A DNA stretch of 64,000 nucleotides from Candidatus Zixiibacteriota bacterium (GCA_036826635.1 DAISVY010000008.1:64292-128291), one strand, 5' to 3'. Shown: positions 7,157 through 51,569, counted from the stretch's first letter. Program-made: numbers and translations. Notes: generated from the letters alone by a model not told the origin.

Positions 7157-7185
7157 GTATCGGCAATTAGAGAATAAACGTGAAC
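7157..7185 (-). promoter_or_regulatory. sigma-28-type promoter candidate for the Cys-rich small ORF
   Basis: Minus strand reads GTTCA-N16-GCCGATAC, the same architecture as the motA site, 22 nt upstream of the ATG at 7134. Confidence 0.5.
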
Positions 7186-7430
7186 CGGCCAAAACACCCG
7201 AGAATAGAAAGATATATGCAGAAACATGCACATAGAAGGGTCAGGGGTAAAAAGAAATTGGTCGAGAGGAAGGATTGTCTTATATTGTCATTATCGAAAA
7301 AGGCTGAAAGACTTCAAGTACTTACGGGTTTATTTCGTCGTTAAACTCAACTCTGGCAGGAATCTAAAATCGGCCGCTCGGAAATGCATGTTTTTTGCTC
7401 CATAGCGAAGCACAACTAATGGGCGGAAAT

Positions 7431-8741
7431 ATGATACAACGTCTTGGTTTATCGCTATTAATGGTAATTGCGCTGCTGGCCGGGGTTTCGTCCGGCAACG
7501 CTCAGGTCGGGGTTGACCCCAATCAACCGGACACGCTGAAGGTGGACTCGTCCGTAGCTTTCATCTACGGCTCCGGGGTGGTACCGGTTAATTTCTTCAA
7601 TGACGAAAAGCTGTCGGCCATGGAGGTCGTGTTGCACCACAACTGCCCCCATGTGTTAATCGACTCCTTCTCCTTCGCCGGTGGCCGTCTGGAAGAAGAA
7701 GGATTCGCCAACGGTTTTACCATCGATACCACCGACCGTGTTATCACCATCTTCTCGACTATCGGCAGTTCGCTGATACCGTCGGGCGACGGACTATTGG
7801 GGAAGCTTTACCTTTCGTATCCCCAGACAATCACGGAGCAGGTCATTCCGATTGACACCATCACGTGGATGTCGGGCTTGATCGAACATCGGACCAGTTT
7901 CGTGGGTGAGGATTTCTTATCCGATCCTTTCACGCCTCAGTTCGCCAAAGGATACCTGGATATCCAGGAAACTCCCGTAACTTTCGACTCGGTCTGGGTG
8001 TCCGACGTAGCCACCATGGCCAACGAACCGACGGCGGTCGGCATCTACACATATAACGAGCGCGACCTCAACAAAATCGCCGTAGCTCTCGAATACGGTA
8101 CCGGCCTGCTGCATTTCGACAGTATCTCCTACCTCGACGGCCGGGGAGCGGCCGCCTCCAAAAAAACCATCAGGTCGGACACGACGAATCATACTCTGCG
8201 CCTGGTTCTGACTTTCGGTGATTTCGTTCCCCTGGTACCGGGCTCAGGCCTGCTGGCCACCATACATTTCACGGTCGGAAGCGGTAACGCCGACACCATC
8301 GTGGTCATCGACTCGACTACGGTGGGAACGGATGGCAACACCCGTTTCACTCTGACCTCGGTTGATGGCTCGGTGTCTTATGTCCCGCGTTTTCACCCGG
8401 GATCGGTAGCGGTAACCATGTCCACCGACGTGAAGGACATTACGGACGAGGACAATCTGCCAACGGACTACAGCCTCGCACAGAACTACCCGAACCCGTT
8501 CAACCCGACTACCGATATCGAGTTCACTCTGCCCGTCGCGGCCCGGGTGAAACTCGACGTATTCAATATCCTGGGACGTAAAGTCCGACGATTAATCGAT
8601 CAGGATTTACCCGCCGGAGTGCACCGGGTGACATTCAACGGACAAGGAGATAACGGCAAAACTCTGGCTACCGGCGTATACTTCTACCGGTTGAACACGG
8701 AATCGTATACCGAGACCAAGAAGATGTTGTTACTGAAATAA
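7431..8741 (+). CDS. secreted protein with two cohesin-like modules and a T9SS (Por) C-terminal sorting domain
   Basis: Signal peptide MIQRLGLSLLMVIALLAGVSSGNAQ. C-terminus YSLAQNYPNPFNPTTDIEFTLP...GVYFYRL...KKMLLLK is the classic T9SS CTD. Two internally similar modules of about 150 aa look cohesin-like (weak call). Confidence 0.7.
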   Translation: MIQRLGLSLLMVIALLAGVSSGNAQVGVDPNQPDTLKVDSSVAFIYGSGVVPVNFFNDEKLSAMEVVLHHNCPHVLIDSFSFAGGRLEEEGFANGFTIDTTDRVITIFSTIGSSLIPSGDGLLGKLYLSYPQTITEQVIPIDTITWMSGLIEHRTSFVGEDFLSDPFTPQFAKGYLDIQETPVTFDSVWVSDVATMANEPTAVGIYTYNERDLNKIAVALEYGTGLLHFDSISYLDGRGAAASKKTIRSDTTNHTLRLVLTFGDFVPLVPGSGLLATIHFTVGSGNADTIVVIDSTTVGTDGNTRFTLTSVDGSVSYVPRFHPGSVAVTMSTDVKDITDEDNLPTDYSLAQNYPNPFNPTTDIEFTLPVAARVKLDVFNILGRKVRRLIDQDLPAGVHRVTFNGQGDNGKTLATGVYFYRLNTESYTETKKMLLLK

Positions 8742-8772
8742 CGTCGGGACAGATTTACGAAGATATCGTCAG

Positions 8773-8803
8773 GGCAGCGAAGCTATTCGCTGCCTTTCTT
8801 TTT
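8773..8803 (+). terminator. rho-independent terminator after the T9SS cargo gene
   Basis: GGCAGCGAA-GCTA-TTCGCTGCC followed by TTTCTTTTT. It overlaps the last codons of the convergent fliJ. Confidence 0.7.
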
Positions 8804-9247
8804 GCGGCGTCGGTCAGTGTTGGCACCGATTTCGTCAAGTTCTTTCTGCTCGGCTTTCTCGAGTTCCTGCATATGTTTGAACTGCCAGGTTTCTTTGAGA
8901 GTCTGAAAAATCTTTCGTTCCTTAGCCGCCTCGACCAGCTTCACCCGGCGCTCCTCGGCTTTAAGCTGCAAACCGTGCAGGAGTTCGGCACCACCGAGAC
9001 GTTCCCGTCTCAGCTTCATCAGATAGCGCGAATACACCAATGCCTCGGCCACCGAGATTGACCCGGACAAATGGTTGCGTTGCTGTTTCAACGCGGTCAG
9101 GCGCATATTATCTATCCGGTCCAATTGCTCTTTCTGACGCACGACTTTCTCGACAGCCTCGGCGTGTTCTTTCTGACGTTCCTTTTCTTTGTGACGCCGC
9201 ACGTTGAGCATCGGCTCGAACCGGAATTTGAACTTCTTCCCCGCCAT
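8783..9247 (-). CDS. fliJ: flagellar export chaperone FliJ
   Basis: 154-aa coiled-coil protein (FRFEPMLNVRRHKEKERQKE...) directly after fliI. Confidence 0.75.
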   Translation of the reverse strand: MAGKKFKFRFEPMLNVRRHKEKERQKEHAEAVEKVVRQKEQLDRIDNMRLTALKQQRNHLSGSISVAEALVYSRYLMKLRRERLGGAELLHGLQLKAEERRVKLVEAAKERKIFQTLKETWQFKHMQELEKAEQKELDEIGANTDRRRKKKGSE

Positions 9248-9250
9248 GAC

Positions 9251-13895: not shown

Positions 13896-14222
13896 TTACA
13901 TAGGCATTTGCATTATCTGGTTAAAAGCGGAAACCAGCTTGTTGCGAATCGCCAGAAGCAGATCCATACTGATCCCGGCTTCCTCCGCCTTGATCATGAC
14001 TTCGTGCAGTTCTATCGGTTCACCTGCAATAAAAGCCTCCTGAGCCTGGGCGGATTGCTGCTGCGCCTGGTTTACCGATTCGACAAGGTCGGATACCATA
14101 TCGGCGAACTTTGGTTCGTTTGCGACTTCGTTCCCGCCGACCGCCAGTTGTTTCCCGCCGGCTTGTTCAATCAACCCCGGCACAAGGCGCTGGATATTCG
14201 ACACCGATCCACTCATGATCAC
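13896..14222 (-). CDS. fliE: flagellar hook-basal body protein FliE
   Basis: 108 aa; FADMVSDLVESVNQAQQQSAQAQEAFIAGE...LLAIRNKLVSAFNQIMQMPM is typical FliE. Confidence 0.85.
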   Translation of the reverse strand: MIMSGSVSNIQRLVPGLIEQAGGKQLAVGGNEVANEPKFADMVSDLVESVNQAQQQSAQAQEAFIAGEPIELHEVMIKAEEAGISMDLLLAIRNKLVSAFNQIMQMPM

Positions 14223-15516: not shown

Positions 15517-15532
15517 AGCAAGAGAAATGCCA
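15517..15532 (-). promoter_or_regulatory. sigma-54 (-24/-12) promoter candidate for the flgB operon
   Basis: Minus strand reads TGGCAT-TTCTC-TTGCT; GG and GC are at consensus spacing (TGGCAC-N5-TTGCW). It lies 38 nt upstream of the flgB ATG at 15479. Confidence 0.6.
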
Positions 15533-15652
15533 AACCGCGTCCGCTTCACACACTCTATTGTCACACATGCAGTTAGAGCGTGCAAGCCAGGTCGACACTC
15601 GGGCTGTCAGGAACACACAGAAGGAACGGATTTCCGGTCCGTGGGGAATAAT

Positions 15653-16396
15653 TTACCGGTCTTTATCGGAATAATATAATTGTGAAGTGGGTTCGGTCAG
15701 GGTTAGCTCCATAGTCAGAATTACAACGTCCACCCGACGGTTGCGGGACCGGCCTTCGACCGTGCTGTTCGGCTGGATGGGGCGAAATTCCCCGTAACCA
15801 AGGGCCGAAATCCGATCCGGTGGAATGGGGTGATTCTCGATCAGGTATCTTGCCACGGTTGTTGCCCGCGCCGATGAAAGCTCCCAGTTGGACGGATAAA
15901 CAGAAGTGTGAATAGGCCGATTATCGGTATGCCCCTCCACTCTGACATGATTGGGGCGCCCTTTAACCTGTTCCGCGATCAAATCAAGGACATCGCGCGC
16001 CTTGAGCTTAAGCTCGGCCGAACCTTCATCGAAAAGGGCCGACTCTAAAATGTGAATAACCAGTCCCCGCTCGGTCACCTCGGACTGCAATTCCTCGTTC
16101 TTTCCAAGTTGCTTGAACCTGTCGTCGATACGCTGCTGAACCATACGCAGGTTTCCGAATTTGAGCAGGCCATGACCGGTTTTAGCCGGCATCAAACGGT
16201 ATTTCAACGCCGAATTGCCACCTCGCAAAACGGTGTTAAGAGCATCGGAGACCAGACCGAATTTCTTGGCATCCACCTGGGACATCGAATACATGACAAT
16301 GAAAAAAGCCAGCAGCAGAGTGATCAGATCGGCGTAGGTAAGCAACCAGCGCTCGAGATTTTCCGAAGAATCGAGTTTTTTGCGTTGACGGCGCAC
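15653..16396 (-). CDS. motB: flagellar stator protein MotB
   Basis: WLLTYADLITLLLAFFIVM TM segment with the conserved Asp, plus an OmpA-like C-terminus (NRRVDVVIL). Confidence 0.88.
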   Translation of the reverse strand: MRRQRKKLDSSENLERWLLTYADLITLLLAFFIVMYSMSQVDAKKFGLVSDALNTVLRGGNSALKYRLMPAKTGHGLLKFGNLRMVQQRIDDRFKQLGKNEELQSEVTERGLVIHILESALFDEGSAELKLKARDVLDLIAEQVKGRPNHVRVEGHTDNRPIHTSVYPSNWELSSARATTVARYLIENHPIPPDRISALGYGEFRPIQPNSTVEGRSRNRRVDVVILTMELTLTEPTSQLYYSDKDR

Positions 16397-16399
16397 GGC

Positions 16400-17164
16400 C
16401 TAAACCTCTACAGGGCGCTCCGAAGGGGCTATGAATGACATGAGACGGGTCCGAATGTTACGCGGGTTATCTCCCGACTGAATCGCCACCACTCCTTCCA
16501 TGATGAGTTCCAGATAGGCCATCTCTTCGTCGTTTTTCATCCGCAGCTTGTCGGACACGGGCAGGAAAAACAGATTGGCCAAACCGACACCCCAAAGAGT
16601 AGCGATAAATGCCGCAGCGATAGCCCCGGCCATCTGGCCGGCATCGGAAGTGCTCCCTAAAGCGTGAATCATCCCGAGCACGGTGCCCAATATGCCCAGG
16701 GTCGGTGCGAAACCACCGGCCTTCTGGAAAAACGCAATACCGCGTTTGTGACGTTCCTGCACGTAGGCAATCTCCGTTTCAAGAACTTCACGCAAAACAG
16801 TAACCTCGGTTCCGTCGATCAGAAGCTGGACAGCCTTTTTGAAAAAGGACTGCTTAATTTCTCTCTGATCGGCTTCCAGCCCCAGGATACCCTCACGCCG
16901 GGCCTTCTCGGCCAGCCTCACGATGTGGTTTATGACCTCGGCACAACTATGCGATGGCCCGGCAAAAGCCATCTGCAAATACTGAGGTACCCGCATAACG
17001 GTCTGAGCCGAGGTGGTAATCATGGTCGCTCCCAGAGTACCGCCTATTACAATCAGCATAGGAGCCAACAGGAAAACCGACTGCGGGTCGCCGCCTTCCA
17101 GCGCGTAAGCACCACAGATCGCACCGACGGACAGCACGAGGCCTAATATAGTAGCAAGATCCAT
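16400..17164 (-). CDS. motA: flagellar stator protein MotA
   Basis: 254 aa, MotA/TolQ/ExbB-type four-TM protein, directly upstream of motB. Confidence 0.88.
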   Translation of the reverse strand: MDLATILGLVLSVGAICGAYALEGGDPQSVFLLAPMLIVIGGTLGATMITTSAQTVMRVPQYLQMAFAGPSHSCAEVINHIVRLAEKARREGILGLEADQREIKQSFFKKAVQLLIDGTEVTVLREVLETEIAYVQERHKRGIAFFQKAGGFAPTLGILGTVLGMIHALGSTSDAGQMAGAIAAAFIATLWGVGLANLFFLPVSDKLRMKNDEEMAYLELIMEGVVAIQSGDNPRNIRTRLMSFIAPSERPVEV

Positions 17165-17234: not shown

Positions 17235-17263
17235 GTATCGGCAGGAAAGTTCAATATATGAAC
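17235..17263 (-). promoter_or_regulatory. sigma-28-type promoter candidate for motAB
   Basis: Minus strand reads GTTCA-N16-GCCGATAC; GCCGATA is the FliA/SigD -10 hallmark. It lies 70 nt upstream of the motA ATG. Confidence 0.5.
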
Positions 17264-17289
17264 AAAAAGTGTGATGCCGGATGCGGCAT
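17264..17289 (-). terminator. weak terminator-like hairpin after the sigma-54 regulator gene
   Basis: Minus strand reads ATGCCG-CATC-CGGCAT, then CACAC, then TTTTT. The stem is short and the T-run displaced. Confidence 0.3.
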
Positions 17290-20031: not shown

Positions 20032-20098
20032 TGCTATATCCCATCCTCCGAGAACAGGATATTAGAAGCAACGCTTGTTCAGTTCAACTAAAACTTGA

Positions 20099-21199
20099 CT
20101 AAAAATAGCTGGTAATCTCAGCGGCGATGTTGTCAATGGGAGCAATGTGATCGGTAATATCAGCCTCGATAACGGCCTTCGGCATACCGTAAACAATACT
20201 GGTTCCTTCATCCTGGGCAATCAGAATACCGCCGCGGCTCTTAAGTAACCTGCCCCCCACGAGCCCATTGGAACCCATACCGGTCAGAATGACCGCCATG
20301 GCTCTGTTGCCGAAAGCTTCCGCTACCGAGTTGATCATCACGTCAATGCAGGGTTTATACAGAGTATCCGCGGGCTCGTCGGTAACCTGAGCGCGAGTCC
20401 GGCCACCGTAGCGCCGAACTTTAAGGTGCTTGCCGCCCGGAGCTATCAACACCAGGCCCGGTTCGACCGGGTCACCGTTTTCCGCTTCTCTGACCGTAAC
20501 CTGCGACAGGCTGTTCAACCGTTCGGCCAGCGATTTGGTGAAAGTCGCCGGCATATGCTGCGCGATAACGATACCGACCGGAAAGTTTTTTGGCAAAGCG
20601 GAAACGACGGTCTGAAGAGCCTGCGGTCCTCCGGTGGATGCCCCTATCGCCACGATGCTGATCCCGTGATGTCTCCGGGGCGGAGATGAGATCTCGACCG
20701 GATGGGTATGAGCAGGTTTGGGAGCAGGAGGCGCCGGGGCGGTAGAAACATGCCGCACATGGTATCGGGCCATCAGGATATGTTTACGCCGAACAACATC
20801 TTTGATCTTGGCCAGCAAACCGTCTTTGATCTTGACGATGTCAAGACTGACGTATGACATCTGCTTGGGGATAAAATCGACCGCCCCCAGTTCCAGCGCC
20901 TGAAGCGTGGCGTTGGCCCCCTCCGTGGTGACCGACGAGATCATCATGACGAGAGTGGGCATGGCCGACATGATCTGGCGCAATGCCGTCAGACCGTCCA
21001 TGCGCGGCATCTCGATATCCATAGTAACCAGGTCGGGCTTGAGCTGCCTGACCTTGGCCACGCCTTCTTCGCCGTCGCGTGCCGTACCGACCACTTTTAT
21101 AGCCGGGTCCGATTCCAGCATCATGGTCAGAGCCTTGCGCATGAATGCGGAGTCGTCGACCACCAGAACTCTTATTGGCGGTGATGTTGTATCGACCAC
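20099..21199 (-). CDS. cheB: chemotaxis methylesterase/deamidase CheB
   Basis: N-terminal REC (RVLVVDDSAFMR...MDIEMPRMDG) plus a CheB esterase domain (GASTGGPQAL, GMGSNG). Confidence 0.92.
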   Translation of the reverse strand: MVDTTSPPIRVLVVDDSAFMRKALTMMLESDPAIKVVGTARDGEEGVAKVRQLKPDLVTMDIEMPRMDGLTALRQIMSAMPTLVMMISSVTTEGANATLQALELGAVDFIPKQMSYVSLDIVKIKDGLLAKIKDVVRRKHILMARYHVRHVSTAPAPPAPKPAHTHPVEISSPPRRHHGISIVAIGASTGGPQALQTVVSALPKNFPVGIVIAQHMPATFTKSLAERLNSLSQVTVREAENGDPVEPGLVLIAPGGKHLKVRRYGGRTRAQVTDEPADTLYKPCIDVMINSVAEAFGNRAMAVILTGMGSNGLVGGRLLKSRGGILIAQDEGTSIVYGMPKAVIEADITDHIAPIDNIAAEITSYF

Positions 21200-21212
21200 T
21201 GATCCGTCCCGG

Positions 21213-22946
21213 TTAACTCAGTTTTTTAGCGATACCGAACAATCCCATCAAATCGACGATCAACCGTATGCGACCGTCACCGAGTATCGCAGCGCCGGCC
21301 ACTCCTTCCGTAGCACCCAAATACCCACCGAGCGATTTGATCACAACCTCTTCCTGCCCCAGGAAACGGTCGGTGATTATACCCAGTTTGCGGTCGGCCA
21401 ACCCAACAATCACAATGTAAGGTTTCTCGGTCAGAACAAAACCCCGAGTCGAGGAACGGAGAATTTCCCCCAAGTTGACAACCGGAACCACCTCATCTCG
21501 CAGGCGCAACACGGGACGTTGATTTACATATGATATGTTGGCACCGGCGGTCCTGACCGTCTCAGAAACCGACGACAACGGCAGAATAAAAACCTCGTCA
21601 TCGGACTGAATAAGTAAACCCCGAATGATAGCCAGCGTAAGCGGCAGTTTTATCGAAATAGTGGTGCCGACATCTTTGGTCGACGCTATCTCGACCAGGC
21701 CGTTAAGTTTTTCTATATTCGTACGGACCACGTCCATACCGACACCACGTCCGGAAACATCGGTAACAACTTTCGCCGTCGAGAAACCCGGCTCGAAAAT
21801 GAATCCGAAAATATCGCGATCAGGCAAGCGCTCGACGTCGGCCCGTGAAACCAGCCCTCTCTCCACCGCTTTCTCTTTGATGGCCTCCACGTTGAGACCT
21901 TTACCGTCATCCTCGATCTTGATCACGATATGCGAACCTTCCTGACTGGCGGAAAGCCTGACGACCCCCTCGGCCGGTTTCCCTTTGGCCACCCGGTCGG
22001 CGGGAGATTCAATACCGTGGTCGCAGGAATTTCTAACAAGATGAACCAGCGGATCGCCTATCTCATCGATGACGGATTTGTCCAGTTCGGTTGTTTCACC
22101 CGAGATTTTCAGTTCAATGTTTTTTCCGTTCTCACGAGTCAAATCACGAACCAGCCGCGGGAACTTACCGAACACCTTTCCCACCGGCTGCATGCGCATT
22201 TTCATAACAGCCAATTGCAACTCGGTGGAGATATAGTTAACGGAAGCGCCTTCGCGACCGAGTCGCTCCTTGATCGCCGCTATGCTGTCGTTGTCCTCGA
22301 AAGAGTTGATCGTCTGAAGCAAGCTATTGCGAGAAAGTACCAGCTCCCCGACCAGATTCATCAAAGCATCGAGACGATTGACATCAACACGTATGGTCTG
22401 CTCGGACATTTTCCTGTCGCCCACACTCCGGACCGAATCGGCTTTCACCGGATCGGGAGCAACAACCGAGGTCTCATCTTCCCCGACAGCCGCCGACACC
22501 TCTTCCATCAGCGACGACAGGGATTCGACCGGGTCCGGCTGCTCGCCACAGACACTGGCCAAGCGGCCGATTATATCATCGAGAGCGACCTCTTCCTGAT
22601 TGCCTTTCCGAACGTTATCAAGAAGGACCTTAAGAACGTCCACCGATTCAAGCAGCAAATCCATAATATCCGGAGTCACCGCTATTTCTGATCGGCGCAG
22701 CTTATTAAGGACATCCTCCATGCTGTGGGTGAGATTGGTAACCTGTTCAAAGCCCAGAAAACAGGAAGTACCTTTAATAGTATGAGCGGCACGAAAAATT
22801 TCGTTCAGAAGATCAAGGTCTCCGGGGGAAGCTTCCAGCCTGACCAGATTCTGGTCCAGTGAAGCGATCAGTTCATCCGCTTCCACCAGGAAATCATCAA
22901 CGATCTCCTGCATCTCGTCCAATTCAAAGTCAGTGTCATTACTCAT
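21213..22946 (-). CDS. cheA: chemotaxis histidine kinase CheA (P1-P3-P4-P5; no obvious P2)
   Basis: HPt AHTIKGTS, dimerisation IRVDVNRLDALMNLVGELVL, HATPase (DDGKGL, GRGVGMDVV), C-terminal CheW-like domain. Only about 50 acidic residues lie between P1 and P3. Confidence 0.92.
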   Translation of the reverse strand: MSNDTDFELDEMQEIVDDFLVEADELIASLDQNLVRLEASPGDLDLLNEIFRAAHTIKGTSCFLGFEQVTNLTHSMEDVLNKLRRSEIAVTPDIMDLLLESVDVLKVLLDNVRKGNQEEVALDDIIGRLASVCGEQPDPVESLSSLMEEVSAAVGEDETSVVAPDPVKADSVRSVGDRKMSEQTIRVDVNRLDALMNLVGELVLSRNSLLQTINSFEDNDSIAAIKERLGREGASVNYISTELQLAVMKMRMQPVGKVFGKFPRLVRDLTRENGKNIELKISGETTELDKSVIDEIGDPLVHLVRNSCDHGIESPADRVAKGKPAEGVVRLSASQEGSHIVIKIEDDGKGLNVEAIKEKAVERGLVSRADVERLPDRDIFGFIFEPGFSTAKVVTDVSGRGVGMDVVRTNIEKLNGLVEIASTKDVGTTISIKLPLTLAIIRGLLIQSDDEVFILPLSSVSETVRTAGANISYVNQRPVLRLRDEVVPVVNLGEILRSSTRGFVLTEKPYIVIVGLADRKLGIITDRFLGQEEVVIKSLGGYLGATEGVAGAAILGDGRIRLIVDLMGLFGIAKKLS

Positions 22947-22958
22947 AATACGAAAACG

Positions 22959-23579
22959 TTACTTGTCCTTGACTTCGTTGAAAATCGTGTCGATATCCTC
23001 CTGTTTCGTCTTCTGGTTAAACAAGTCGGCATGAGGATCGTAGGCACGTTTCTTCCTGTTACCATCGCCCGGCTCGGCCACACATTCCTGATCGTCGCCG
23101 GTCCGAGAAAGAATGTTCTGTAGTTTACCTTCGATATCTTCCAGAATAGACGCGGCATGGTCCATCTGCTGAGCCGTAATATCCTGAAACTGGAGCGCAT
23201 CCATAATCAGATAGACATCGTTGAGATTGGCGTTGGCTCTTTCCGCGACAGCCTCGGCCGTTGCATTGACGGCTTCGACATCTCCGGCCAGGACTTTTTC
23301 CTTGAGTTGCGCCATATCGTTTACGATTTCTTCCTCTCGTTGCATAACATGCTCTACTTTATCGAGCATCTGCTGAGTGGCCGCCTCGGTCTGCTGGCTG
23401 ATCTTGTCGAGTTGATCGGTCGCTTGTGGCACCTGGGCACGGGATTCCACCAGCGGTCGTTTCAGGCTTCTCAAATTATCCACCAATTTGGATATGGCTT
23501 CGCTAAGACCGCTTATTTCGTGCTGTATTTTCATCTGTACGTTCTCCGTGACCGACATATTTCCCTGTCTCCCGTTCAT
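22959..23579 (-). CDS. cheZ: CheZ-like CheY-P phosphatase
   Basis: Long helical hairpin with the catalytic signature ALQFQDITAQQ (CheZ D/Q motif) and an acidic C-terminal peptide QEDIDTIFNE resembling the CheY-binding tail. It sits between cheY and cheA. Confidence 0.7.
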   Translation of the reverse strand: MNGRQGNMSVTENVQMKIQHEISGLSEAISKLVDNLRSLKRPLVESRAQVPQATDQLDKISQQTEAATQQMLDKVEHVMQREEEIVNDMAQLKEKVLAGDVEAVNATAEAVAERANANLNDVYLIMDALQFQDITAQQMDHAASILEDIEGKLQNILSRTGDDQECVAEPGDGNRKKRAYDPHADLFNQKTKQEDIDTIFNEVKDK

Positions 23580-23585
23580 GGTCTG

Positions 23586-23960
23586 CTAACCCGCCAACAC
23601 CTGATCGATTTTATCTCTTAGTGTATCGGGAGTAAACGGCTTGACGATATAATTGTTAACACCCGCCTTCATGGCCTCCATGATGTCATCCTTGACGGAG
23701 CGAGTCGTCACCATCAGAATCGGCAACGACTTATATTCGTCCATAGATCGCAGCGTAGTCACAAATGTCAGCCCGTCCATTTCCGGCATATTCCAGTCGG
23801 TAATGACGAAATCAGGTTGCTCGATTTTGATCTTGACCAGCGCGTCTTTACCGTCGCTGGCTTCGATAACATCGGTATAACCGGCCCGTTTCAAAGTATT
23901 GATAATAATCCGACGCATGGTTGGACTATCGTCAACCGCAAGGATCTTGATATTACCCAC
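23586..23960 (-). CDS. cheY: chemotaxis response regulator CheY
   Basis: 124 aa; ILAVDDSPTMRR, ITDWNMPEMDG, NNYIVKPFT. Confidence 0.9.
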   Translation of the reverse strand: MGNIKILAVDDSPTMRRIIINTLKRAGYTDVIEASDGKDALVKIKIEQPDFVITDWNMPEMDGLTFVTTLRSMDEYKSLPILMVTTRSVKDDIMEAMKAGVNNYIVKPFTPDTLRDKIDQVLAG

Positions 23961-23972
23961 AACGTCTCCTCG

Positions 23973-24380
23973 TTACCCCATGTTGCAGTTCAACAGCTTC
24001 GCCACCTCTGAGAGCAAAAGAGACGAATTGAAGGGCTTAACCAAATAAGAATCAGCCCCGGCAGCCATTCCCCTCTCGCGATCATCCTCGTCTCCTTCCG
24101 AGGACAGAATAATGATTGGTGTCTCTCGATGTACCTGGTTTTGCCTGACTGTTTCAATCAACCCGTAACCGTCAAGATTCGGCATATTCAAATCAGTAAT
24201 AATGAGCATCACTTCATCGGGTAGACTGGACATCTTCTCCAGAGCATCCATCCCATCGCAGGCTGTCATCACTTCGTATCCCCCACTCTTGAGAGAGTAC
24301 GAAACGAATTTGACCACGGTCGGAGAGTCGTCGACAACAAGAATCGTCTGGCTCATAAACTGTTCCCTATCTTCTGACAA
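23973..24380 (-). CDS. single-domain response regulator (second CheY-like)
   Basis: 135 aa; ILVVDDSPTV, ITDLNMPNLDG, DSYLVKPF. Confidence 0.85.
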   Translation of the reverse strand: MSEDREQFMSQTILVVDDSPTVVKFVSYSLKSGGYEVMTACDGMDALEKMSSLPDEVMLIITDLNMPNLDGYGLIETVRQNQVHRETPIIILSSEGDEDDRERGMAAGADSYLVKPFNSSLLLSEVAKLLNCNMG

Positions 24381-24390
24381 GCGTATTCGT

Positions 24391-25386
24391 TCACTTCTTA
24401 ACAGCCCCCCGCTTTATTTTACTGAGCAGGTCCAGAGCGCGAGTAGCTCCTTCGCCCGGGGCCACTCCGGTGGGCACGGCGGAGGCCTGTACCGTCTGAG
24501 ACTTCGCTCGCGACGAGGATTCGGCGGTCACATTCTCTTTTTGATAAACCAGGGCGTTTTTGAAATAGACGAGCTTGAACGCCTTGGAGATCCCGTGCAG
24601 CGTCTCGGAATGACCGATATATAAATAGCCACCCGGATTGAGAGCGTTGAAGAAACCTCGCACCAGTTGCTTCTTGACTTCGTCGGAGAAGTAAATCATG
24701 ACATTGCGACAGAAGATAACGTCCATGCCGCTGACCATCGAGACCTTCCGCGGTTCATTGAGGTTCATATGCGAGAACTTGACCATCGCTCTCACTTCGG
24801 GTTTAACCCGATACATGTCGCCCTGTTTTACGAAATATCTCTCCAACAACCTCGGGGGTACATTTCGCAGCGTGAGCCCAGAGTATTCACCGTACCGAGC
24901 TCTTTGCAACACATACTCGGAAATATCATTGGCTATTATTTCAACATTCCACCCGGCCATGCTTATCAGTTTTTCAAGAATCATAACGCCGAGTGTATAT
25001 GGTTCCTCCCCGGTAGAGCACCCGGCCGACCAAATCTTTATATTTTTGGGTGCGTGTTCCCGTTTTTTGCGTTCCAGTAACTGCGGCAGGACTTCGTCGG
25101 AGAAACACTTGAGCTGCGGCTCGTTTCTGAAGAAGCTCGTCTCATTGGTGGTCATGAGCACCATGAGCTGGTTGAACTCTTTCAGCGATACGTCATACTT
25201 GACACGGTAGAAGTAATCGCGCACCGATTTTATATTCAACTCGCCCATGCGCTTCTGCAGCCTGTTCTTGACCAGATACATCTTGTTCTCTGCGAAGAAG
25301 ATGCCGCTTTTTTCATGGATGAAGTCGCGGATCATGCGAAATTCATCCAGTGATATTTCGAGCTCAGACTCAAAACCGGAAATCAT
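24391..25386 (-). CDS. cheR: chemotaxis methyltransferase CheR with a C-terminal extension of about 50 aa
   Basis: TNETSFFRNEPQL, IWSAGCSTGEEPYTL and VIFCRNVMIYF motifs, followed by a low-complexity tail. Confidence 0.9.
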   Translation of the reverse strand: MISGFESELEISLDEFRMIRDFIHEKSGIFFAENKMYLVKNRLQKRMGELNIKSVRDYFYRVKYDVSLKEFNQLMVLMTTNETSFFRNEPQLKCFSDEVLPQLLERKKREHAPKNIKIWSAGCSTGEEPYTLGVMILEKLISMAGWNVEIIANDISEYVLQRARYGEYSGLTLRNVPPRLLERYFVKQGDMYRVKPEVRAMVKFSHMNLNEPRKVSMVSGMDVIFCRNVMIYFSDEVKKQLVRGFFNALNPGGYLYIGHSETLHGISKAFKLVYFKNALVYQKENVTAESSSRAKSQTVQASAVPTGVAPGEGATRALDLLSKIKRGAVKK

Positions 25387-25428
25387 ACAGCGCCCTTTTT
25401 CAGCGGTCCACTCGTTAATTCGACGAGC

Positions 25429-25803
25429 TTATTGCTCCCTGTCTTTCAACTTCGATTCCAGCAACTTGTAAAGTCGGTTGATGTTGAACGGCTTAATAAT
25501 GTAGTCCTCAACCTTGTTTCTCAAACCATTCACGGCCGTCTCGACCGACGGATATCCCGTCATGAGAACAACCGGCATATTCGGATTGGTCTCCTTTACC
25601 CGACTGGTAAGAGCCAGACCATCCATTTCCGGCATTTTGATATCAGTCAGAAGCAAGTCGATCTTCCTGGCGCGGAGAATTTCCAGCGCCTTTTCTCCGT
25701 TCTCCGCAACCGAGATATCCCATCCCTGGCCGGTGAAGAAATCATAGAGCAAATCGCGTATGAGCAACTCGTCGTCAACAACCAGTATAGACGGCCTATT
25801 CAT
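25429..25803 (-). CDS. stand-alone receiver-domain response regulator
   Basis: 124 aa; ILVVDDELLIRD, LTDIKMPEMDG, DYIIKPF. Its start overlaps the stop of the HEAT-repeat gene by 1 nt. Confidence 0.85.
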   Translation of the reverse strand: MNRPSILVVDDELLIRDLLYDFFTGQGWDISVAENGEKALEILRARKIDLLLTDIKMPEMDGLALTSRVKETNPNMPVVLMTGYPSVETAVNGLRNKVEDYIIKPFNINRLYKLLESKLKDREQ

Positions 25804-27716
25804 CAGGAATCCCCCTCGATTTTCCTCAGAGCCATTCTGGCGGCATCGGCCAAGTCCTGGTTGCGGCTGTCTGTCAGCCTGCTGAGCTGAGAGATTGCCT
25901 GGTTACTGCCGATTTGAGACAGCGCCTTGGCGGCTGCTATCTTGATGATATCCATCTCGTCCTCAAGGTACGGGATGATATATTCGGCATACCCCGGTTC
26001 GGCCAGTTCGGCAATAGATACAATCGTATGATATTTCACCCACACGTCTTCATCGTCCAGCAGGAACCGAATATCGGGAACGGCTTTCTTGCCCTTGAGC
26101 GTAATGAGAGCACTGACAGCAGCCTTGCGAACGGCGCTGTCCTCGTCGTTGAGAGCCGTTATTATCGATTCCGTGCTGTCCACCTGACCGATTCTGGCCA
26201 GGGAAGCCACGGCCGATTTGCGTACTCCCGAATCGGGATGATTGACCGCTTTAATCAGCGGCTCCACCACGTCCTGCTCGCCGATCCAGCCAAGAGCGGT
26301 CACGGCCAGCCGTTGTCTCTCGGCATCATCGTGGTAAAGGTCCGACGTAAACTTGGCGACCACTTTGGGACCACCTATAATAATCATGGCCCCGACCGCC
26401 GCCTCGCGGACGTCGGCATATTTGTCGTCGAGACCCGTGGCGACAAAGTCGACTTCATCGTCGGTACACAACCAGCCCAGCGCCGAGAAAGCAGCCGCAC
26501 GAACGTGCCCGTTGGCATCCTCGGCCAGTCGCTTGAGATCTTCCACGGCCGGCGTATATCCCGAAATACCCAGTATATGTGCAACCTTCTGACGAATTTC
26601 GGGATCATCATCGTGAACGTACGGCAATATGTCGGGGGCGACTTTGTCATCGACCAACAATTTCATCACGTCCAGCAGCTTGAGCTTGAGACCTTTGGAA
26701 GCCTGAGGAATCTTCTTTATGATCGCTCCGGCCGCACCGTAGCCGACTTCGCCGAGTATCTCGGTGATACTTTGCAAACGATCGTCATCGACATAATCTA
26801 TAACCTCAAGCAAACCGTTGATAACTTCGCTGCCGTACCAATGCTTCAAATGCGAAAGAGTGAACTCCGTAATAGCCTCGTTGCGATTCTTGATGCCATC
26901 GAAGAGAAACCCGGTGTACCTCTCGAGGGGAATGTCCACGCCAACGCTACCACCGTGCTTTCGGCTTATATCGATGATGGCCGTCATGGCAACTTCACCA
27001 GCCGTACGTTCGGACCCGTCGAGGAATTCGGCCAGATGTGAAATCGACTCCTTTTGGCCGATCTTGCCTATTGCCTCAATAACGATATAGGTCGTAATCG
27101 GATCTTCATTACCCAGGTAACGATAGAGATGTCCCAGAGCCGCAGGATCACCGATCTTACCCAGCGCTTCTATGGCCGGCAGCCGGGCATCTTCGATCCT
27201 TTCGGCAACAGCGATCAGGTCTCCCACAGCGCGGTGCGAGCCTATCTCCCCCAGCGCCTCGGCAGCCGAGCAAACGACGTTGGCATTTTCATCCCAGAGC
27301 CGTTGAAGCAAAGGTTCCACGGCCTCCCCATCACGGATAAGACCGAGAACATCGCATATGAACTTGCGCACGTCGTGATCGTCGTTGTCCAGATTCTCGA
27401 TAAGAGAAGACACCGCCCCGGAACCAATCCTCACCAGAATCTCCGAGGCCAGGTTACGCGTACCGATGTCATCATTGGCAAGGAAACGAATCAATAGCTG
27501 AGCCGCCGTGGCTCCCTTGATACGCGCCAGGTGATCCGCGGCAAGCTCTCGAATGCCCAGATCGGGATCTTCCATAGCGATGACCAGCCCGGCAACCGCT
27601 TCATCCTCGGAATACGTCCCGAGTTCTTTGACGGCTTCCTCACGTTCGAAAAAATCAGGCGACTGCAGCTTGGCCAGCAAGTCCCCGATTTGCTCTTCCA
27701 CTGTGTTCATAACCAT
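25803..27716 (-). CDS. HEAT-repeat (PBS-lyase-type) protein, 637 aa
   Basis: Many tandem repeats of about 31 aa with the pattern D.D..VR..A..ALG.IG (e.g. DPDLGIRELAADHLARI, DHDVRKFICDVLGLI, DSGVRKSAVASLARIG, DSAVRKAAVSALITL). No TM segment or signal peptide. Confidence 0.8.
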   Translation of the reverse strand: MVMNTVEEQIGDLLAKLQSPDFFEREEAVKELGTYSEDEAVAGLVIAMEDPDLGIRELAADHLARIKGATAAQLLIRFLANDDIGTRNLASEILVRIGSGAVSSLIENLDNDDHDVRKFICDVLGLIRDGEAVEPLLQRLWDENANVVCSAAEALGEIGSHRAVGDLIAVAERIEDARLPAIEALGKIGDPAALGHLYRYLGNEDPITTYIVIEAIGKIGQKESISHLAEFLDGSERTAGEVAMTAIIDISRKHGGSVGVDIPLERYTGFLFDGIKNRNEAITEFTLSHLKHWYGSEVINGLLEVIDYVDDDRLQSITEILGEVGYGAAGAIIKKIPQASKGLKLKLLDVMKLLVDDKVAPDILPYVHDDDPEIRQKVAHILGISGYTPAVEDLKRLAEDANGHVRAAAFSALGWLCTDDEVDFVATGLDDKYADVREAAVGAMIIIGGPKVVAKFTSDLYHDDAERQRLAVTALGWIGEQDVVEPLIKAVNHPDSGVRKSAVASLARIGQVDSTESIITALNDEDSAVRKAAVSALITLKGKKAVPDIRFLLDDEDVWVKYHTIVSIAELAEPGYAEYIIPYLEDEMDIIKIAAAKALSQIGSNQAISQLSRLTDSRNQDLADAARMALRKIEGDS

Positions 27717-27743
27717 TCACCCATCCTTTGCAGCTCATTGATC

Positions 27744-28094
27744 CTAATTGGCCGGCACGGATTGGAATGACTGCACTGCCTCTTCCTCGGTAGAGTAAAT
27801 CTCGAAGATGTGAGACAGTTGGGTAATCTCGAAAATCTCCTGGACATAACTGGCCAGATTGGAAAGCGTCAGGCGACCTTTAAGCAGCCGAATTTCTTTC
27901 ATGATCGACACCAACGCTCCCAGACCGGAACTGTTGATAAACTCAACCTCTGACAGATTGAGATGTATCAAGGTTATATTCTTGTCGAACTGTTCCTTGA
28001 GATGCTGCTTGAGCGTGGCCCCGCTGACCAGATCAAGACGACCGCTCAACGAAAGAACGGCAACATTCCCCTCTTCCCTCATTGTAACGTCCAT
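27744..28094 (-). CDS. STAS-domain anti-sigma-factor antagonist (RsbV/SpoIIAA-like)
   Basis: 116 aa; LSGRLDLVSG...NLSEVEFINSSGLGALV includes the phosphorylatable Ser context. Confidence 0.85.
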   Translation of the reverse strand: MDVTMREEGNVAVLSLSGRLDLVSGATLKQHLKEQFDKNITLIHLNLSEVEFINSSGLGALVSIMKEIRLLKGRLTLSNLASYVQEIFEITQLSHIFEIYSTEEEAVQSFQSVPAN

Positions 28095-28112
28095 AATCTC
28101 CTCCGAAGAATG

Positions 28113-28538
28113 TTATCTTTCGAATATCTCCGTTTTCTTTTCTTTCTCAAACGACAGGGAAACCCGCAGCCCTCCATCTGCACATTCCGAGAACTCGGTT
28201 GATACCGCGAGCAAGCGCATGAGTCCGATCCCCCGACCTCTTTCGGCCGAAGGCCCCACCGGGCGATGAGCCCGGATTTGTGCCAACCCACCATTTCCCT
28301 GATCCGTTATATCGGCACGAATCTCGCATTCGTTTACTTCCAGTTCCAGGTGAATCAACTTTTCGGGATTGCAACCATTGCCATGGACCAGAGCATTGGT
28401 AAACGCCTCTGATATGGCTACCGTAACTTTCCACAGGAGCTTCTGCGGAACCCCATGCTGCTCCATGAGTTCAATTGCCTCATCCAACATGCGGTTGGGG
28501 GCATCAAGCGTTGACGAATAACTCCGGTGATATATCAC
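28113..28538 (-). CDS. RsbW/SpoIIAB-like serine kinase anti-sigma factor
   Basis: 141 aa HATPase_c-type; AISEAFTNALVHG N-box and ERGRGIGLM G-box. Confidence 0.8.
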   Translation of the reverse strand: MIYHRSYSSTLDAPNRMLDEAIELMEQHGVPQKLLWKVTVAISEAFTNALVHGNGCNPEKLIHLELEVNECEIRADITDQGNGGLAQIRAHRPVGPSAERGRGIGLMRLLAVSTEFSECADGGLRVSLSFEKEKKTEIFER

Positions 28539-28543
28539 GGTTC

Positions 28544-29830
28544 TTAATCCACCCTGACCTGAACAATAGTGAAATCATCCTGGCTGTCTTCAGGAGCACC
28601 ATCGGTGAAACGATCCACCCAATCTTTAACCCTCAAACAGAAGTCCTCGGGATTCATACCAATTTCCGCGGAAAAGACCTGCTCGGCCCGTTCCCGCCCG
28701 AAAAGATTACCCTCTATATCGCGAGCCTCGGTCAAACCGTCGGTAAACAGAAACAACCGATCCCGGCTGGAAAAAGCGCGCTCCCCGAGACTATATGAAG
28801 TGCCCTCGAACTGGCCCAGAATAGGCCCGCCCTCGGACAGTTCCTCAATACGACCTTCACGATTATCCCAAAAAAGGCCCGGCATATGGCCCGCGTTGCA
28901 ATAAGTAAGTTTACGAGTGGCCAAATCGAACTTGCAGAAGAACAGGGTAACAAACATCTCTCTTTTCTTGATTATCTTAGCCGCCATCAGGTCGTTAACC
29001 CGTTCAGCCAGCGCGGACATACTGATAGTGGGATTGCTCGTCAGGATCGACTTGATAACAGCCGAACAGGCCGACATGATCAGCGCGGCCGGTACGCCTT
29101 TGTTGGAGACATCCCCGATAATGACGATAAAACGACGTTCATCGATTTTGAGAATATCATAGAAATCGCCACCCACTTCGCGAGCCGGGAAATACACCGC
29201 TCCGATACTGGCGCCGAAGATATCCCCCACATCACCCGGCAGAATCGTTTCCTGAATCTGCTTGGCGATGGCCATTTCCTGGCCGACTTTCTGCTGCTTT
29301 AGCTTGTCTTTAATAAGGGTAGAGTTTTCTACCGCGACCGCGACAAAGCTCAGAAGCATCTCAAGGATATCCCTATCCTCATCCGTGTAGTTACCCCCGC
29401 CAGCCTTATTGATAACGATCATTACGCCGAGACATCTCTGCCGGGCATGGATCGGGGCAGCGATAACCGTATCCAGAACGATACCTTCGGATTTCAGATC
29501 CAGATCAGACAGGAGGATCATCTGATCGCGCTTGAAGCAATAGCTGGCCAGATCCAGACCATCCTCATACATCAGCGAGCGGACAAAAGAATCGGAAACT
29601 CCCCAGGCTACCCTGGGCTTGAGTTCCCCGTCTTCTTCGATAAGTATAACCCCCACTTCGCCATCGACCAGCCGAAGGGCCATGTCCATCGTAACGGACA
29701 AAACGGCATCAATTTCAAGGAATGCCGTAATAACCGCCCCCATGGTGGCGAGGTCGCGGACCTGGGCTCGCTGAGCCGCGAGTTTGGCCTCGAGCTTCTC
29801 GACCGTAGTTGTCTGTTCCACCGACGCCAT
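28544..29830 (-). CDS. GAF-domain PP2C (SpoIIE/RsbU-type) serine phosphatase
   Basis: 428 aa; N-terminal GAF-like region and C-terminal FYDI...IGDVSNKGVPAALIMS...LFTDGLTEA, the PP2C SpoIIE signature. Confidence 0.85.
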   Translation of the reverse strand: MASVEQTTTVEKLEAKLAAQRAQVRDLATMGAVITAFLEIDAVLSVTMDMALRLVDGEVGVILIEEDGELKPRVAWGVSDSFVRSLMYEDGLDLASYCFKRDQMILLSDLDLKSEGIVLDTVIAAPIHARQRCLGVMIVINKAGGGNYTDEDRDILEMLLSFVAVAVENSTLIKDKLKQQKVGQEMAIAKQIQETILPGDVGDIFGASIGAVYFPAREVGGDFYDILKIDERRFIVIIGDVSNKGVPAALIMSACSAVIKSILTSNPTISMSALAERVNDLMAAKIIKKREMFVTLFFCKFDLATRKLTYCNAGHMPGLFWDNREGRIEELSEGGPILGQFEGTSYSLGERAFSSRDRLFLFTDGLTEARDIEGNLFGRERAEQVFSAEIGMNPEDFCLRVKDWVDRFTDGAPEDSQDDFTIVQVRVD

Positions 29831-29838: not shown

Positions 29839-29876
29839 ATATCGGCAGATCGACTTTACAATTGACGAATTAGCCG
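29839..29876 (-). promoter_or_regulatory. sigma-28-type -10 element immediately upstream of the GAF-PP2C gene
   Basis: Minus strand reads GTCAA-N15-GCCGATAT, then 8 nt, then the ATG at 29830. The -35 match is weak, and the transcript would be leaderless. Confidence 0.3.
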
Positions 29877-46364: not shown

Positions 46365-46411
46365 GCAGTAACCCCGATCTCCCCGGTTGGTAAAACTAAC
46401 AAAAACGACAG

Positions 46412-46440
46412 GTTAATCGTCCCCTCCCTACCGCCGATAT
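46412..46440 (+). promoter_or_regulatory. sigma-28-type promoter candidate for the secreted ORF 46450-47022
   Basis: GTTAA-N16-GCCGATAT, then 9 nt, then ATG; implies a leaderless or near-leaderless mRNA. Confidence 0.4.
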
Positions 46441-46449: not shown

Positions 46450-47022
46450 ATGAGACGAATATCGCTTTACCTGTCGCTTCTGCTCGGCCTGACCCTGAGT
46501 AGCGCCACGGCGCAAACGGAGACAGACTTAGACAGCAACGTCGCGTTCTATGAAGGGGAATCGTTCAATTACGTCATCTATCCGCCGGACGGATTCAGGA
46601 TGGTTACCGACGAGGCTGCGTACGACGGTTATTCTTTCGCCTTTGTTCCGGAACCGTCGACTTACGACAGCTCGGATATAATGATCGGAGTGAACATCTT
46701 CAAAATTCGCGGGCTCGATTTCAATGACATGGTAAAACAGGACACGGCCAGTATCAGAGAGCATTACGGCGCGAACATGCTGATCCGTCCGGTCGATTCG
46801 GTCTTCAGTGGAAGTGGTGATATTCTGCCGACTTTCTATATCGACAACCGCGAGATATTTATCCCTAACGTGATGATCTCATATTACAACGGGAAAACCG
46901 AAGTGCTGATATTCGAACTGGTCATCTCCGAGGGAACGACCCGTTTCAAAGCCGAAGATCTCTTCATCGCTTGCCTGAAAGAATTCAAAGCCATGCCGGT
47001 GGGTGAGCTGGGATACGAATAA
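46450..47022 (+). CDS. hypothetical secreted protein
   Basis: Signal peptide MRRISLYLSLLLGLTLSSATAQ. No recognisable family. Confidence 0.6.
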   Translation: MRRISLYLSLLLGLTLSSATAQTETDLDSNVAFYEGESFNYVIYPPDGFRMVTDEAAYDGYSFAFVPEPSTYDSSDIMIGVNIFKIRGLDFNDMVKQDTASIREHYGANMLIRPVDSVFSGSGDILPTFYIDNREIFIPNVMISYYNGKTEVLIFELVISEGTTRFKAEDLFIACLKEFKAMPVGELGYE

Positions 47023-47102: not shown

Positions 47103-49730
<2,628 letters not shown>

Positions 49731-50762: not shown

Positions 50763-50904
50763 GGTTTATTCAATCCTCGTCTTTCAAAGCATATCATCAA
50801 CTCTCACAACTTAGTCACATTAAACTCTTTTTACAAGAAAGGCCGACCGCAAGTGGCCGACCTTTCCTCTTGTCAGAGCAATGTAGAATGGCACAGAATG
50901 TCAC

Positions 50905-51342
50905 TTACGCAACCTTCACCTCGATCTGTTTCGGCTTGACTTCCTCAAGCTTCGGCATCGTCACTTCCAGCATGCCGTTCTTGTAGTCAGCCGAAATCTT
51001 CTCGTGGTTGACCGTCTCGGGCAAAGTGAACGAGCGGCAGAAAGCCCCGCTTGAAATCTCACTGCGCACATAGTCGTCTTCCTTGACCTCGCGCTTCAAT
51101 TCACGGGTACCGGAAACGGTCAGGGTACCGTCGTCCATCGTTACCTTGATGTCCTTCTTTTCCATGCCGGGCAGTTCGAAAGTCAGGCGAACATCATCCT
51201 TGGTTTCGTGGATGTTCACCCTCGGGACAAACTCACTGTCGTCTTCGGCAGACCGCCGCGGGAAACGTAAGAAATCATCAAAGAACTGGTCAAAGTCTCT
51301 GGCCCACAGGCTGCGGTTGGGGCGAATCATCATCTTGGTCAT
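50905..51342 (-). CDS. Hsp20/alpha-crystallin small heat-shock protein
   Basis: 145 aa; PRVNIHETKDDVRLTFELPGMEKKDIKV...GMLEVTMPK. Confidence 0.9.
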   Translation of the reverse strand: MTKMMIRPNRSLWARDFDQFFDDFLRFPRRSAEDDSEFVPRVNIHETKDDVRLTFELPGMEKKDIKVTMDDGTLTVSGTRELKREVKEDDYVRSEISSGAFCRSFTLPETVNHEKISADYKNGMLEVTMPKLEEVKPKQIEVKVA

Positions 51343-51393
51343 TTTACTTACCTCCTTATTTTCCTTCTTTTTCTGTCGTTCGACCCCAGGTAA

Positions 51394-51409
51394 GACAAGT
51401 GTCGTGCCA
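51394..51409 (-). promoter_or_regulatory. sigma-54-like element upstream of hsp20 (deviant -12)
   Basis: Minus strand reads TGGCACG-ACAC-TTGTC. The -24 half is perfect, but the -12 is GT instead of GC. It lies about 52 nt upstream of the ATG at 51342. Confidence 0.3.
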
Positions 51410-51518
51410 AAACATTTAAGTCGTTATTTTTCAATAAGTTAATAAAAAGGCCGCCAAGCGCACCAAAAGCCACACCGCCATTACGGCAGGCCAATGGCAC
51501 ATTTTGGCAGACACGACA

Positions 51519-51550
51519 CGCCGATATGACAGCAGTCTGCCATATCGGCG
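51519..51550. repeat. 14-bp inverted repeat (one mismatch) downstream of the 739-aa HEAT gene
   Basis: CGCCGATATGACAG-CAGT-CTGCCATATCGGCG. Each arm carries GCCGATAT on one strand. No T-run follows on the minus strand. Confidence 0.6.
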
Positions 51551-51569
51551 GTAAATCCAGCCTGTGAAC
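51542..51569 (-). promoter_or_regulatory. sigma-28-type promoter-like element about 200 nt upstream of hsp20
   Basis: Minus strand reads GTTCA-N15-GCCGATAT. The -10 is also one arm of the inverted repeat at 51519-51550. Confidence 0.35.

Follow-up and report, generated by a model that had tools for sequence, protein, structure and literature searches.

Which factor reads a promoter-like motif that recurs in front of flagellar, chemotaxis, stress and uncharacterized genes of an uncultured bacterium? The question is raised by a stretch of 64,000 nucleotides (nt) from a Candidatus Zixiibacteriota bacterium (GCA_036826635.1 DAISVY010000008.1:64292-128291; hereafter the window, with positions counted from its first letter), in which an earlier note had marked five intergenic instances of GTTMA-N15/16-GCCGATAY, i.e. 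ahead of motA, a Cys-rich open reading frame (ORF), hsp20, a secreted ORF and a GAF-PP2C gene. From the motif, its geometry, enrichment, gene context and conservation we infer that it is very probably a promoter of the canonical type for the flagellar sigma-28 factor (FliA/SigD/WhiG family). The promoter type itself is well known, and the window provides a new example of it in uncultured Zixibacteria; a literature search returned nothing on Zixibacteria FliA.

Occurrence of the motif

All five instances are present on the strands given earlier, and each is oriented to its downstream gene. One position had to be corrected: the GAF-PP2C site is there, but it runs from 29866 to 29839 and does not start at 29876, a slip of 10 nt. 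The window contains 13 copies of the 8-mer GCCGATAY where 4.64 +/- 1.9 are expected, and 0 of 100 shuffles attain this number. Six of the copies fall into ~4.7 kb of intergenic DNA, where a first-order Markov model predicts 0.34 and 2000 simulations gave at most 3, so the earlier rough estimate of six intergenic copies against about 0.3 by chance was sound. The other seven lie in ~59 kb of coding DNA, roughly at chance level; the equal density inside and between genes, which the earlier note had considered fatal to its proposal, is therefore not what we find. GCCGATA is the most frequent of all intergenic 7-mers, and the composite pattern GTTCA-N15/16-GCCGATAY is present three times in the window against 0.01 expected.

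Architecture of the promoter

The comparison set consisted of ~40 syntenic Zixibacteria loci. A logo was built from 34 sites of the window and ~25 related loci, aligned on CGAT. In the -10 region T, G and C at positions -3 to -1 precede the invariant CGAT, which is followed by A, and the GC is nearly invariant. In the -35 region T at -21 (26/34), A at -19 (24/34) and A at -18 (19/34) stand out. The distance from the T of the -35 to the G of the -10 is 19 nt, identical to that in the E. coli consensus TAAAGTTT-N11-GCCGATAA. Exact GCCGATAY is found at five window sites, the -35 boxes of the window are TCAT, TCAA, TCAC and TAAT plus TAAA (at flgN and at a site internal to an operon, both described below), and the genes concerned are those of a late flagellar set: motAB, the che operon and flgN-flgK in the window, and flagellin in four relatives. 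Both the logo and this gene context agree with the earlier reading of GCCGATAY as a FliA/SigD -10.

The companion claim, of a SigB-like element in place of an absent canonical -35, did not survive. T[A/C/T]AA is conserved at the sigma-28 distance, and the flgN site carries CTAAAG, which means that the canonical -35 is present in the window genome itself. In E. coli, chromatin immunoprecipitation sequencing of FliA recovered promoters with TCAAGT (flgKL), TCAAGA (fliL), TCAACT (modA) and TTAAGT (ycgR), often together with TGCCGATA (PMC4183435, Table 2), and 30 of the 52 sites were intragenic (PMC4183435). Since FliA of E. coli binds TCAA and TTAA variants, the TCAT, TCAA, TCAC and TAAT boxes of the window are ordinary sigma-28 variants.

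A scoring matrix trained exclusively on the sites of the relatives, and then run over the window, placed the Cys-rich ORF (22.1), motA (21.9) and GAF-PP2C (21.6) sites above all 30 null maxima; ranks four and five went to the internal site in an RsbW-like gene (17.9) and to the secreted ORF (14.1). The same five sites lead when a two-block matrix with a spacer free by 1 nt is used, the secreted ORF then scoring 15.8. RNA polymerase with the presumed sigma-28 factor would recognise an extended -10, (T)GCCGATA(Y), preceded at 15-16 nt by a -35 of the form T[A/C/T]AA, and transcription would start ~7 nt past the -10.

Several points weigh against this assignment. The secreted-ORF site has a motif score (14.1-15.8) at the top of the null range, and it is conservation that carries it. 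A Pfam search of essentially all ORFs in the 64-kb window gave no sigma-28 gene, and neither did a phmmer search of the ~40 Zixibacteria loci with RpoD regions 2-4, which found FliA-like genes solely in non-Zixibacteria loci. FlgM was not recognised in the window. Lastly, the RsbW/SpoIIAB-like anti-sigma kinase encoded in the main operon leaves room for a SigF/SigB-like sigma factor that has converged on the motif.

Promoters of the stator and chemotaxis genes

The predicted sigma-28-type promoter of motA (17235..17263, minus strand) has the structure GTTCA-N16-GCCGATAC, with TCAT as the -35, and lies 70 nt before the motA ATG. Its unit consists of the stator genes motA and motB (15653..17164, minus strand; Pfam MotA_ExbB/MotA_N and MotB_plug/OmpA). 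In 15/15 Zixibacteria loci GCCGATA is found 65-85 nt upstream of the motA ATG, while the flanking sequences have diverged. A terminator-like hairpin (17289..17274) directly upstream separates the promoter from the neighbouring pair of genes for a PAS kinase and a sigma-54 activator. The inverted repeat GTTCA-N5-TGAAC that had been pointed out at the motA -35 (17249-17263, minus strand) is present, but only in the window genome: it is absent in the 15 related motA promoters and we rejected it as a general motA operator. The motA leaders (17165-17228 in the window, minus strand, and orthologues) mostly have a stem-loop of varying sequence in their first 25-30 nt, GGGGCGGUUAUUAUACCGCCC in the window, which may be a stabilising 5'-end hairpin.

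The chemotaxis genes belong to an operon of 11 genes (20099..29830, minus strand; Pfam, NCBIfam) in the order GAF-PP2C, RsbW-like kinase, STAS, HEAT, response regulator, cheR, response regulator, cheY, cheZ, cheA and cheB. This order is kept in 15 loci, and CheA is 66% identical to that of Zixibacteria metagenome-assembled genomes (MAGs); the matches of FlgK and ClpB likewise bear Zixibacteria names. A partner-switch module thus heads the operon, together with two sigma-28-type promoters, one of a leaderless type and one internal, ahead of STAS. The first (29839..29866, minus strand) reads GTCAA-N15-GCCGATAT, with TCAA as the -35, and ends 8 nt before the ATG of GAF-PP2C. Eight relatives (L001-L006, L010 and L020) have (G/T)CCGATA or TCGATA 7-9 nt upstream of the same ATG, again with diverged flanks.

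The second promoter (28309..28336, minus strand; TAAA-N16-GCCGATAT) was overlooked in the earlier note. It lies within the gene of the anti-sigma kinase, 215 nt before STAS. In the close relatives the codons at this site are fixed even at their synonymous positions (Ala GCC in 8/8, Asp GAT in 9/9). Moreover, GCCGATA(A/T) occurs 119-250 nt upstream of STAS in 11/11 loci, on non-homologous codons in L009, L049 and L023, and the distant lineages have GCCGATAA at other codons, 119-197 nt ahead of STAS. Fixed synonymous sites and a motif that is relocated but stays in front of STAS point to selection on the DNA and hence to a promoter at this position.

Promoters of flgN-flgK and flagellin

A further promoter, missed earlier on account of its degenerate -10, precedes flgN (1771..1799, minus strand; CTAAAG-N15-GTCGAATA). 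It lies ~34 nt before the flgN ATG, its -35 within the end of flgJ, and CTAAAG-N15-G(C/T)CGA(T/C)(A/G/T)(A/G/C) is found at the matching place in L161, L162, L164 and L166. Behind it is the late hook-filament-junction unit flgN-flgK (2..1737, minus strand; Pfam FlgN, FlgK_D1), with flgK running out of the window. Another candidate, GGCGATAT, only 6 nt before flgN, was rejected as it is not conserved; the conserved promoter is 30 nt further upstream.

In the relatives flgK is followed by csrA, flgL, fliW, two glycosyltransferase genes, flagellin and fliD. In four of them the flagellin gene, which the window does not reach, has a conserved island, (G/C)TTAAGTC-N13-(G/A)CCGA.., ~220 nt ahead of its ATG. 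The ~220-nt flagellin leaders (L161:18803-19107, L162:18613-18890, L164:18678-18969, L166:18495-18754) contain three conserved blocks with GGA, i.e. ACATnGGAAGTGA, GGTAAGGAAACCT and TCAAGGAGGA, and csrA and fliW flank flgL nearby. These blocks and genes suggest a translational circuit of FliW, CsrA and flagellin like that of B. subtilis.

The Cys-rich and secreted proteins

The two remaining conserved sites precede genes for uncharacterized proteins. The first (7157..7185, minus strand; GTTCA-N16-GCCGATAC, with TCAC as the -35) is followed at 22 nt by the ATG of the Cys-rich ORF. We count five relatives with orthologous sites, among them GTCAA-N16-GCCGATAC (L086), GTTCA-N16-GTCGATAC (L089), GTCAA-N16-GCCGATCT (L161), TAAG-N15-GCCGATAT (L166) and GCCGATAT (L081/L162), all in diverged flanks. 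In L161 the promoters of both the Cys-rich ORF and flagellin end in CCGATC, not CCGATA, which may reflect a -10 preference peculiar to this genome and co-varying with its sigma factor.

The ORF itself (6883..7134, minus strand) encodes 83 amino acids with four conserved cysteines (C7, C13, C21, C28) and a C-terminal helix. A search of 1.84 billion proteins yielded 30 representatives of this Cys4 family. It had no match in Pfam or NCBIfam even at E = 10. AlphaFold2 modelling reached a confidence (pLDDT) of 52 from 3 sequences and of 68 from 30, and a Foldseek search of the PDB gave nothing below E = 1.

The second site (46412..46440, plus strand; GTTAA-N16-GCCGATAT, with TAAT as the -35) is 9 nt short of the ATG at which the secreted ORF (46450..47022, plus strand) begins. 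Its product has 190 amino acids and a signal peptide, is conserved in Zixibacteria, and has no match in Pfam or NCBIfam. The orthologous promoters, embedded in diverged flanks, are CTAAA-N16-GCCGATAA-N8-ATG (L168), CTAAA-N16-GCCGATAT-N9-ATG (L169) and TCAA-N16-ACCGATAT-N7-ATG (L170).

The earlier note had also seen leaderless mRNAs in two of the sites, and here the relatives lend it weight. An ATG 7-9 nt past the -10 is found for GAF-PP2C in nine genomes and for the secreted ORF in four. In the window the start codons come 8-9 nt after the -10, so the mRNAs of both genes are predicted to be leaderless or nearly so. Their starts lack a GGAGG, whereas hsp20 and flagellin have a strong one.

An 8-mer of another kind was noticed around the secreted ORF. 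The intergenic CGACAGGT/ACCTGTCG has eight exact copies, and counting those with up to one mismatch gives 64 where 49 are expected, in heterogeneous contexts (46406-46413 / 46469-46476; 36798-36821; 6768-6775; 34810-34817). An inverted pair (46406-46413 / 46469-46476) flanks the promoter and start codon of the secreted ORF on both sides, and another pair is a hairpin-like palindrome upstream of glyA.

Alternative explanations

The fifth site, between HEAT2 and hsp20 (51542..51569, minus strand; GTTCA-N15-GCCGATAT), is doubtful. The copies at 51.5 kb, already described as an inverted repeat, form one 30-bp palindrome, GCCGATATGrCAG-N4-CTGyCATATCGGC (51520..51549), directly past the HEAT2 stop codon. 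For this site only, we consider it probable that the GCCGATAT pair is the stem of a hairpin at the 3' end of the PD40-PQQ-HEAT2 operon, or else opens an array of sigma-54 activator sites, and that its match to the motif is a coincidence. GCCGATA is absent between HEAT2 and hsp20 in five relatives (L167-L171), each of which has a long hairpin in the same place; the arms differ (GCGCCACA, CCTCTA, GCCTTAA) yet remain complementary, with the core TGrCAG..CTGyCA. The RNA of 51455-51580 (minus strand) folds into two strong hairpins (z = -4.6). A second hairpin, terminator-like and with a T-run, lies at 51489..51469. The two-block score is 12.8, rank 10, and lies within the null range, as the null yields ~4 matches of 12 or more. 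Past the hairpin there are TGCCA repeats and then a sigma-54-type promoter, GGCAC-N5-TG, 50-65 nt ahead of hsp20, in the window as well as in the relatives.

Against the coincidence stands the exact GTTCA 15 nt upstream, a pentamer shared with two true sites; the composite pattern is expected 0.01 times per window, and we estimate p ~0.02 for a chance third copy of GTTCA among the remaining GCCGATAY. Because of this GTTCA, a lineage-specific promoter, perhaps of a short RNA that ends at 51489..51469, is the less likely but still plausible reading; the fold of such an RNA from its predicted start was unremarkable (z = -1.2), and this candidate was set aside. As for the regulon, the hsp20 site is most likely not a member. 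The single group-3 sigma regulon that had been proposed therefore holds for motAB, the partner-switch/che supercluster and the two uncharacterized proteins, but loses its stress operon, where the site is missing in 5/5 relatives, ranks within the null range, serves as a hairpin arm and is followed by a sigma-54-type promoter of hsp20. As a separate observation, the TGCCA/TGGCA array (51343-51573 in the window; L167-L171) lies between the HEAT2 stop and the hsp20 promoter in every genome, its first pair lying inside the covarying hairpin.

For the motif as a whole, the earlier note leaned towards a group-3 sigma factor akin to SigB/SigF, under the control of the RsbU/RsbW/RsbV-like switch of the same operon, with GTTCA/GTTAA as a SigB-type -35. 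SigB promoters follow the consensus GTTTAA-N12-15-GGGTAT, and SigF has a -10 of the form GGnnAnAnT. The operon behind one of the sites does encode the parts of such a switch, i.e. GAF-PP2C, a HATPase_c_2 kinase with weak matches to SpoIIAB/RsbW and a STAS antagonist, and a GTT prefix stands ahead of the -35 at four window sites. However, the -10 is GCCGATA at every site, neither GGGTAT nor GGnnAnAnT, and in the 34 sites neither the G at -23 nor the T at -22 is conserved, so that the core of the -35 is T-N-A-A and not GTTTAA. Plain CTAAAG is found in relatives and at the flgN site of the window, and the targets (flagellin, motAB, che, flgN-K) are the classical sigma-28 set. We regard this explanation as improbable.

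Still less credit can be given to GCCGATA as the operator of a DNA-binding regulator rather than a sigma element. One copy is palindromic, and GTTCA-N5-TGAAC overlaps the motA -35, but neither the palindrome nor the motA repeat is conserved. The motif is asymmetric and faces the gene in every conserved case, a second box stands at a fixed 15-16 nt, and the distance to the ATG is fixed at 7-9 nt in the two leaderless genes. Chance or a compositional artefact, with which the frequency of the intragenic copies would agree, is practically negligible in view of the six intergenic copies where 0.34 are expected, the three composite patterns where 0.01 are expected, and the orthologous sites conserved in as many as 15 genomes, which refute it for 4/5 sites.

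Gene organization and the regulatory cascade

The predicted sigma-28 units are part of a larger flagellar cluster. The Pfam map of the minus strand begins with flgK, flgN, flgJ, flgI, flgH, flgA, flgG, flgF and the Cys-rich ORF; past a divergent gene it continues with fliJ, fliI, fliH, fliG, fliF, fliE, hyp106, flgC, flgB, motB and motA, then with the sigma-54 activator, the PAS kinase and the genes from cheB through GAF-PP2C. Further along there are the secreted ORF (plus strand) and, on the minus strand again, clpB, a dnaJ-like gene, hsp20 and HEAT2. The divergent gene (7395-8741, plus strand) encodes a protein with a C-terminal sorting domain of the type IX secretion system (T9SS) and a FlgD_ig-like domain, and has the same position in most relatives covering the region. 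The product of hyp106 (14219-14539, minus strand; 106 amino acids), located between flgC and fliE, is found in most Zixibacteria loci covering the region and has no family match. Its N-terminus, MKINPV..YQ, is reminiscent of that of B. subtilis FlgM; the C-terminal domain of FlgM was not detected in it.

Sigma-54 promoters have the consensus TGGCAC-N5-TTGCW. The window has three matches to GGCA[CT]-N5-[CT]TG[CT], at 6746..6759 before flgF, 15518..15531 before flgB and 51395..51408 before hsp20, all on the minus strand, at operon heads and kept in relatives. As ~4 occurrences are expected by estimate, it is the placement and the conservation that carry the argument. A heat-shock operon of hsp20, the dnaJ-like gene and clpB behind a sigma-54-type promoter is noteworthy in its own right. 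The promoters of flgF and flgB are each preceded, at about 100 nt, by a palindrome similar to GGAAA-N3-TTTCC (6872-6884 and 15623-15635), kept in relatives, which is likely the binding site of the sigma-54 activator encoded at 17316-18686. Given that flgF and flgB have conserved sigma-54-type promoters of their own, the Cys-rich ORF and motAB are predicted not to head the basal-body operons behind them, but to be short sigma-28 units that front sigma-54 operons.

The pair of PAS kinase and activator genes has a promoter of its own between cheB and the PAS kinase gene (20059..20096, minus strand), a sigma-70-like AAGTTTTWGTTGAA-N17-TAnnnT (TTGAAC/TAATAT). The AAGTTTTWGTTGAA block and TAATAT, with an upstream A/T element, were found in 11 relatives. 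This suggests that housekeeping promoters in Zixibacteria are of the proteobacterial rather than the Bacteroidetes type.

Taken in order, these promoters would form a three-tier cascade as in Campylobacter, Helicobacter, Vibrio and Pseudomonas. The housekeeping sigma factor would drive the two-component system of PAS kinase and sigma-54 activator; sigma-54 would then drive the basal-body and rod operons flgB...fliJ and flgF...flgJ; and sigma-28 would drive the stators, chemotaxis, flgN-K, flagellin and the accessory genes for the Cys4 and secreted proteins.

Comparison with known systems

The promoters can be compared with the class 3 promoters of FliA in E. coli and Salmonella. The -10 GCCGATA, often preceded by T, the 19-nt spacing and the targets (motAB, che, flagellin, flgN/flgK) are the same, and E. 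coli FliA likewise uses TCAA and TTAA as -35 and has intragenic sites. There are differences too. The last base of the -10 is C or T here and not A, the second base of the -35 varies freely between A, C and T, two promoters are of the leaderless type, there is no FlhDC tier, and the sigma gene was not seen in the loci searched.

B. subtilis SigD (TAAA-N15-GCCGATAT) shares the -10 GCCGATAT and the spacing. The resemblance extends to the CsrA-FliW-flagellin circuit, as in the relatives csrA and fliW adjoin flgL and flagellin, and the ~220-nt leader has three GGA motifs. The basal-body genes of B. subtilis, however, are mostly in one SigA/SigD fla/che operon, while here they have sigma-54-type promoters.

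In this latter respect the closest parallels are Campylobacter and Helicobacter (FlgS-FlgR) and Vibrio and Pseudomonas (FlrBC/FleSR), which also have a PAS histidine kinase and a sigma-54-dependent regulator inside the flagellar cluster, with sigma-54-type promoters at flgB and flgF and sigma-28-type promoters at motAB, che and flagellin. P. putida likewise has motA, cheA and fliC under FliA promoters, and flgB and flgF under those of sigma-54 (bioRxiv 10.1101/2021.08.29.457346). The sigma-54 response regulator of the window matches the FlgR and FlbD models of NCBIfam below their cut-offs. Unlike these organisms, Zixibacteria are a phylum of the FCB group, the window has no master regulator of the FlrA/FleQ type, and the assignment of the activator to its promoters is a predicted one.

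The partner-switch module has a counterpart in HptB-HsbR-HsbA of P. aeruginosa, where a PP2C phosphatase/kinase and a STAS antagonist are likewise encoded amid flagellar and che genes. In its unphosphorylated form, HsbA of Pseudomonas binds FlgM, and FliA is set free (PMC5085249). The two arrangements differ in that the phosphatase here has a GAF input and not a receiver domain, an RsbW-like protein of its own supplies the kinase, sigma-28-type promoters stand before the module at the head of the che operon, and FlgM was not identified. By analogy with the HsbA-FlgM circuit we speculate that the partner switch is linked to sigma-28. The stronger version, in which the GAF-PP2C/RsbW-like/STAS module controls sigma-28 itself, replacing FlgM or acting on it, seems rather unlikely to us. 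If it were true, the late flagellar regulon would be under an autoregulated partner switch with sensory input through GAF, with the Cys4 mini-protein and the secreted protein as new factors associated with the flagellum.

The general understanding of sigma-28 is unchanged by these results, and what they add is modest: conserved late genes of the leaderless type, an internal promoter, and a partner switch under predicted sigma-28 control. They provide a first, comparative map of the flagellar/chemotaxis regulon in Zixibacteria and flag the Cys4 mini-protein, the secreted 190-amino-acid protein and the partner-switch module as late-flagellar candidates. The annotation of Zixibacteria MAGs can draw on the motif to delimit transcription units and to spot leaderless starts. 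In a wider context, the FCB group appears to have conserved the sigma-28 promoter grammar as well as a sigma-54/sigma-28 cascade like that of Proteobacteria and Campylobacterota.

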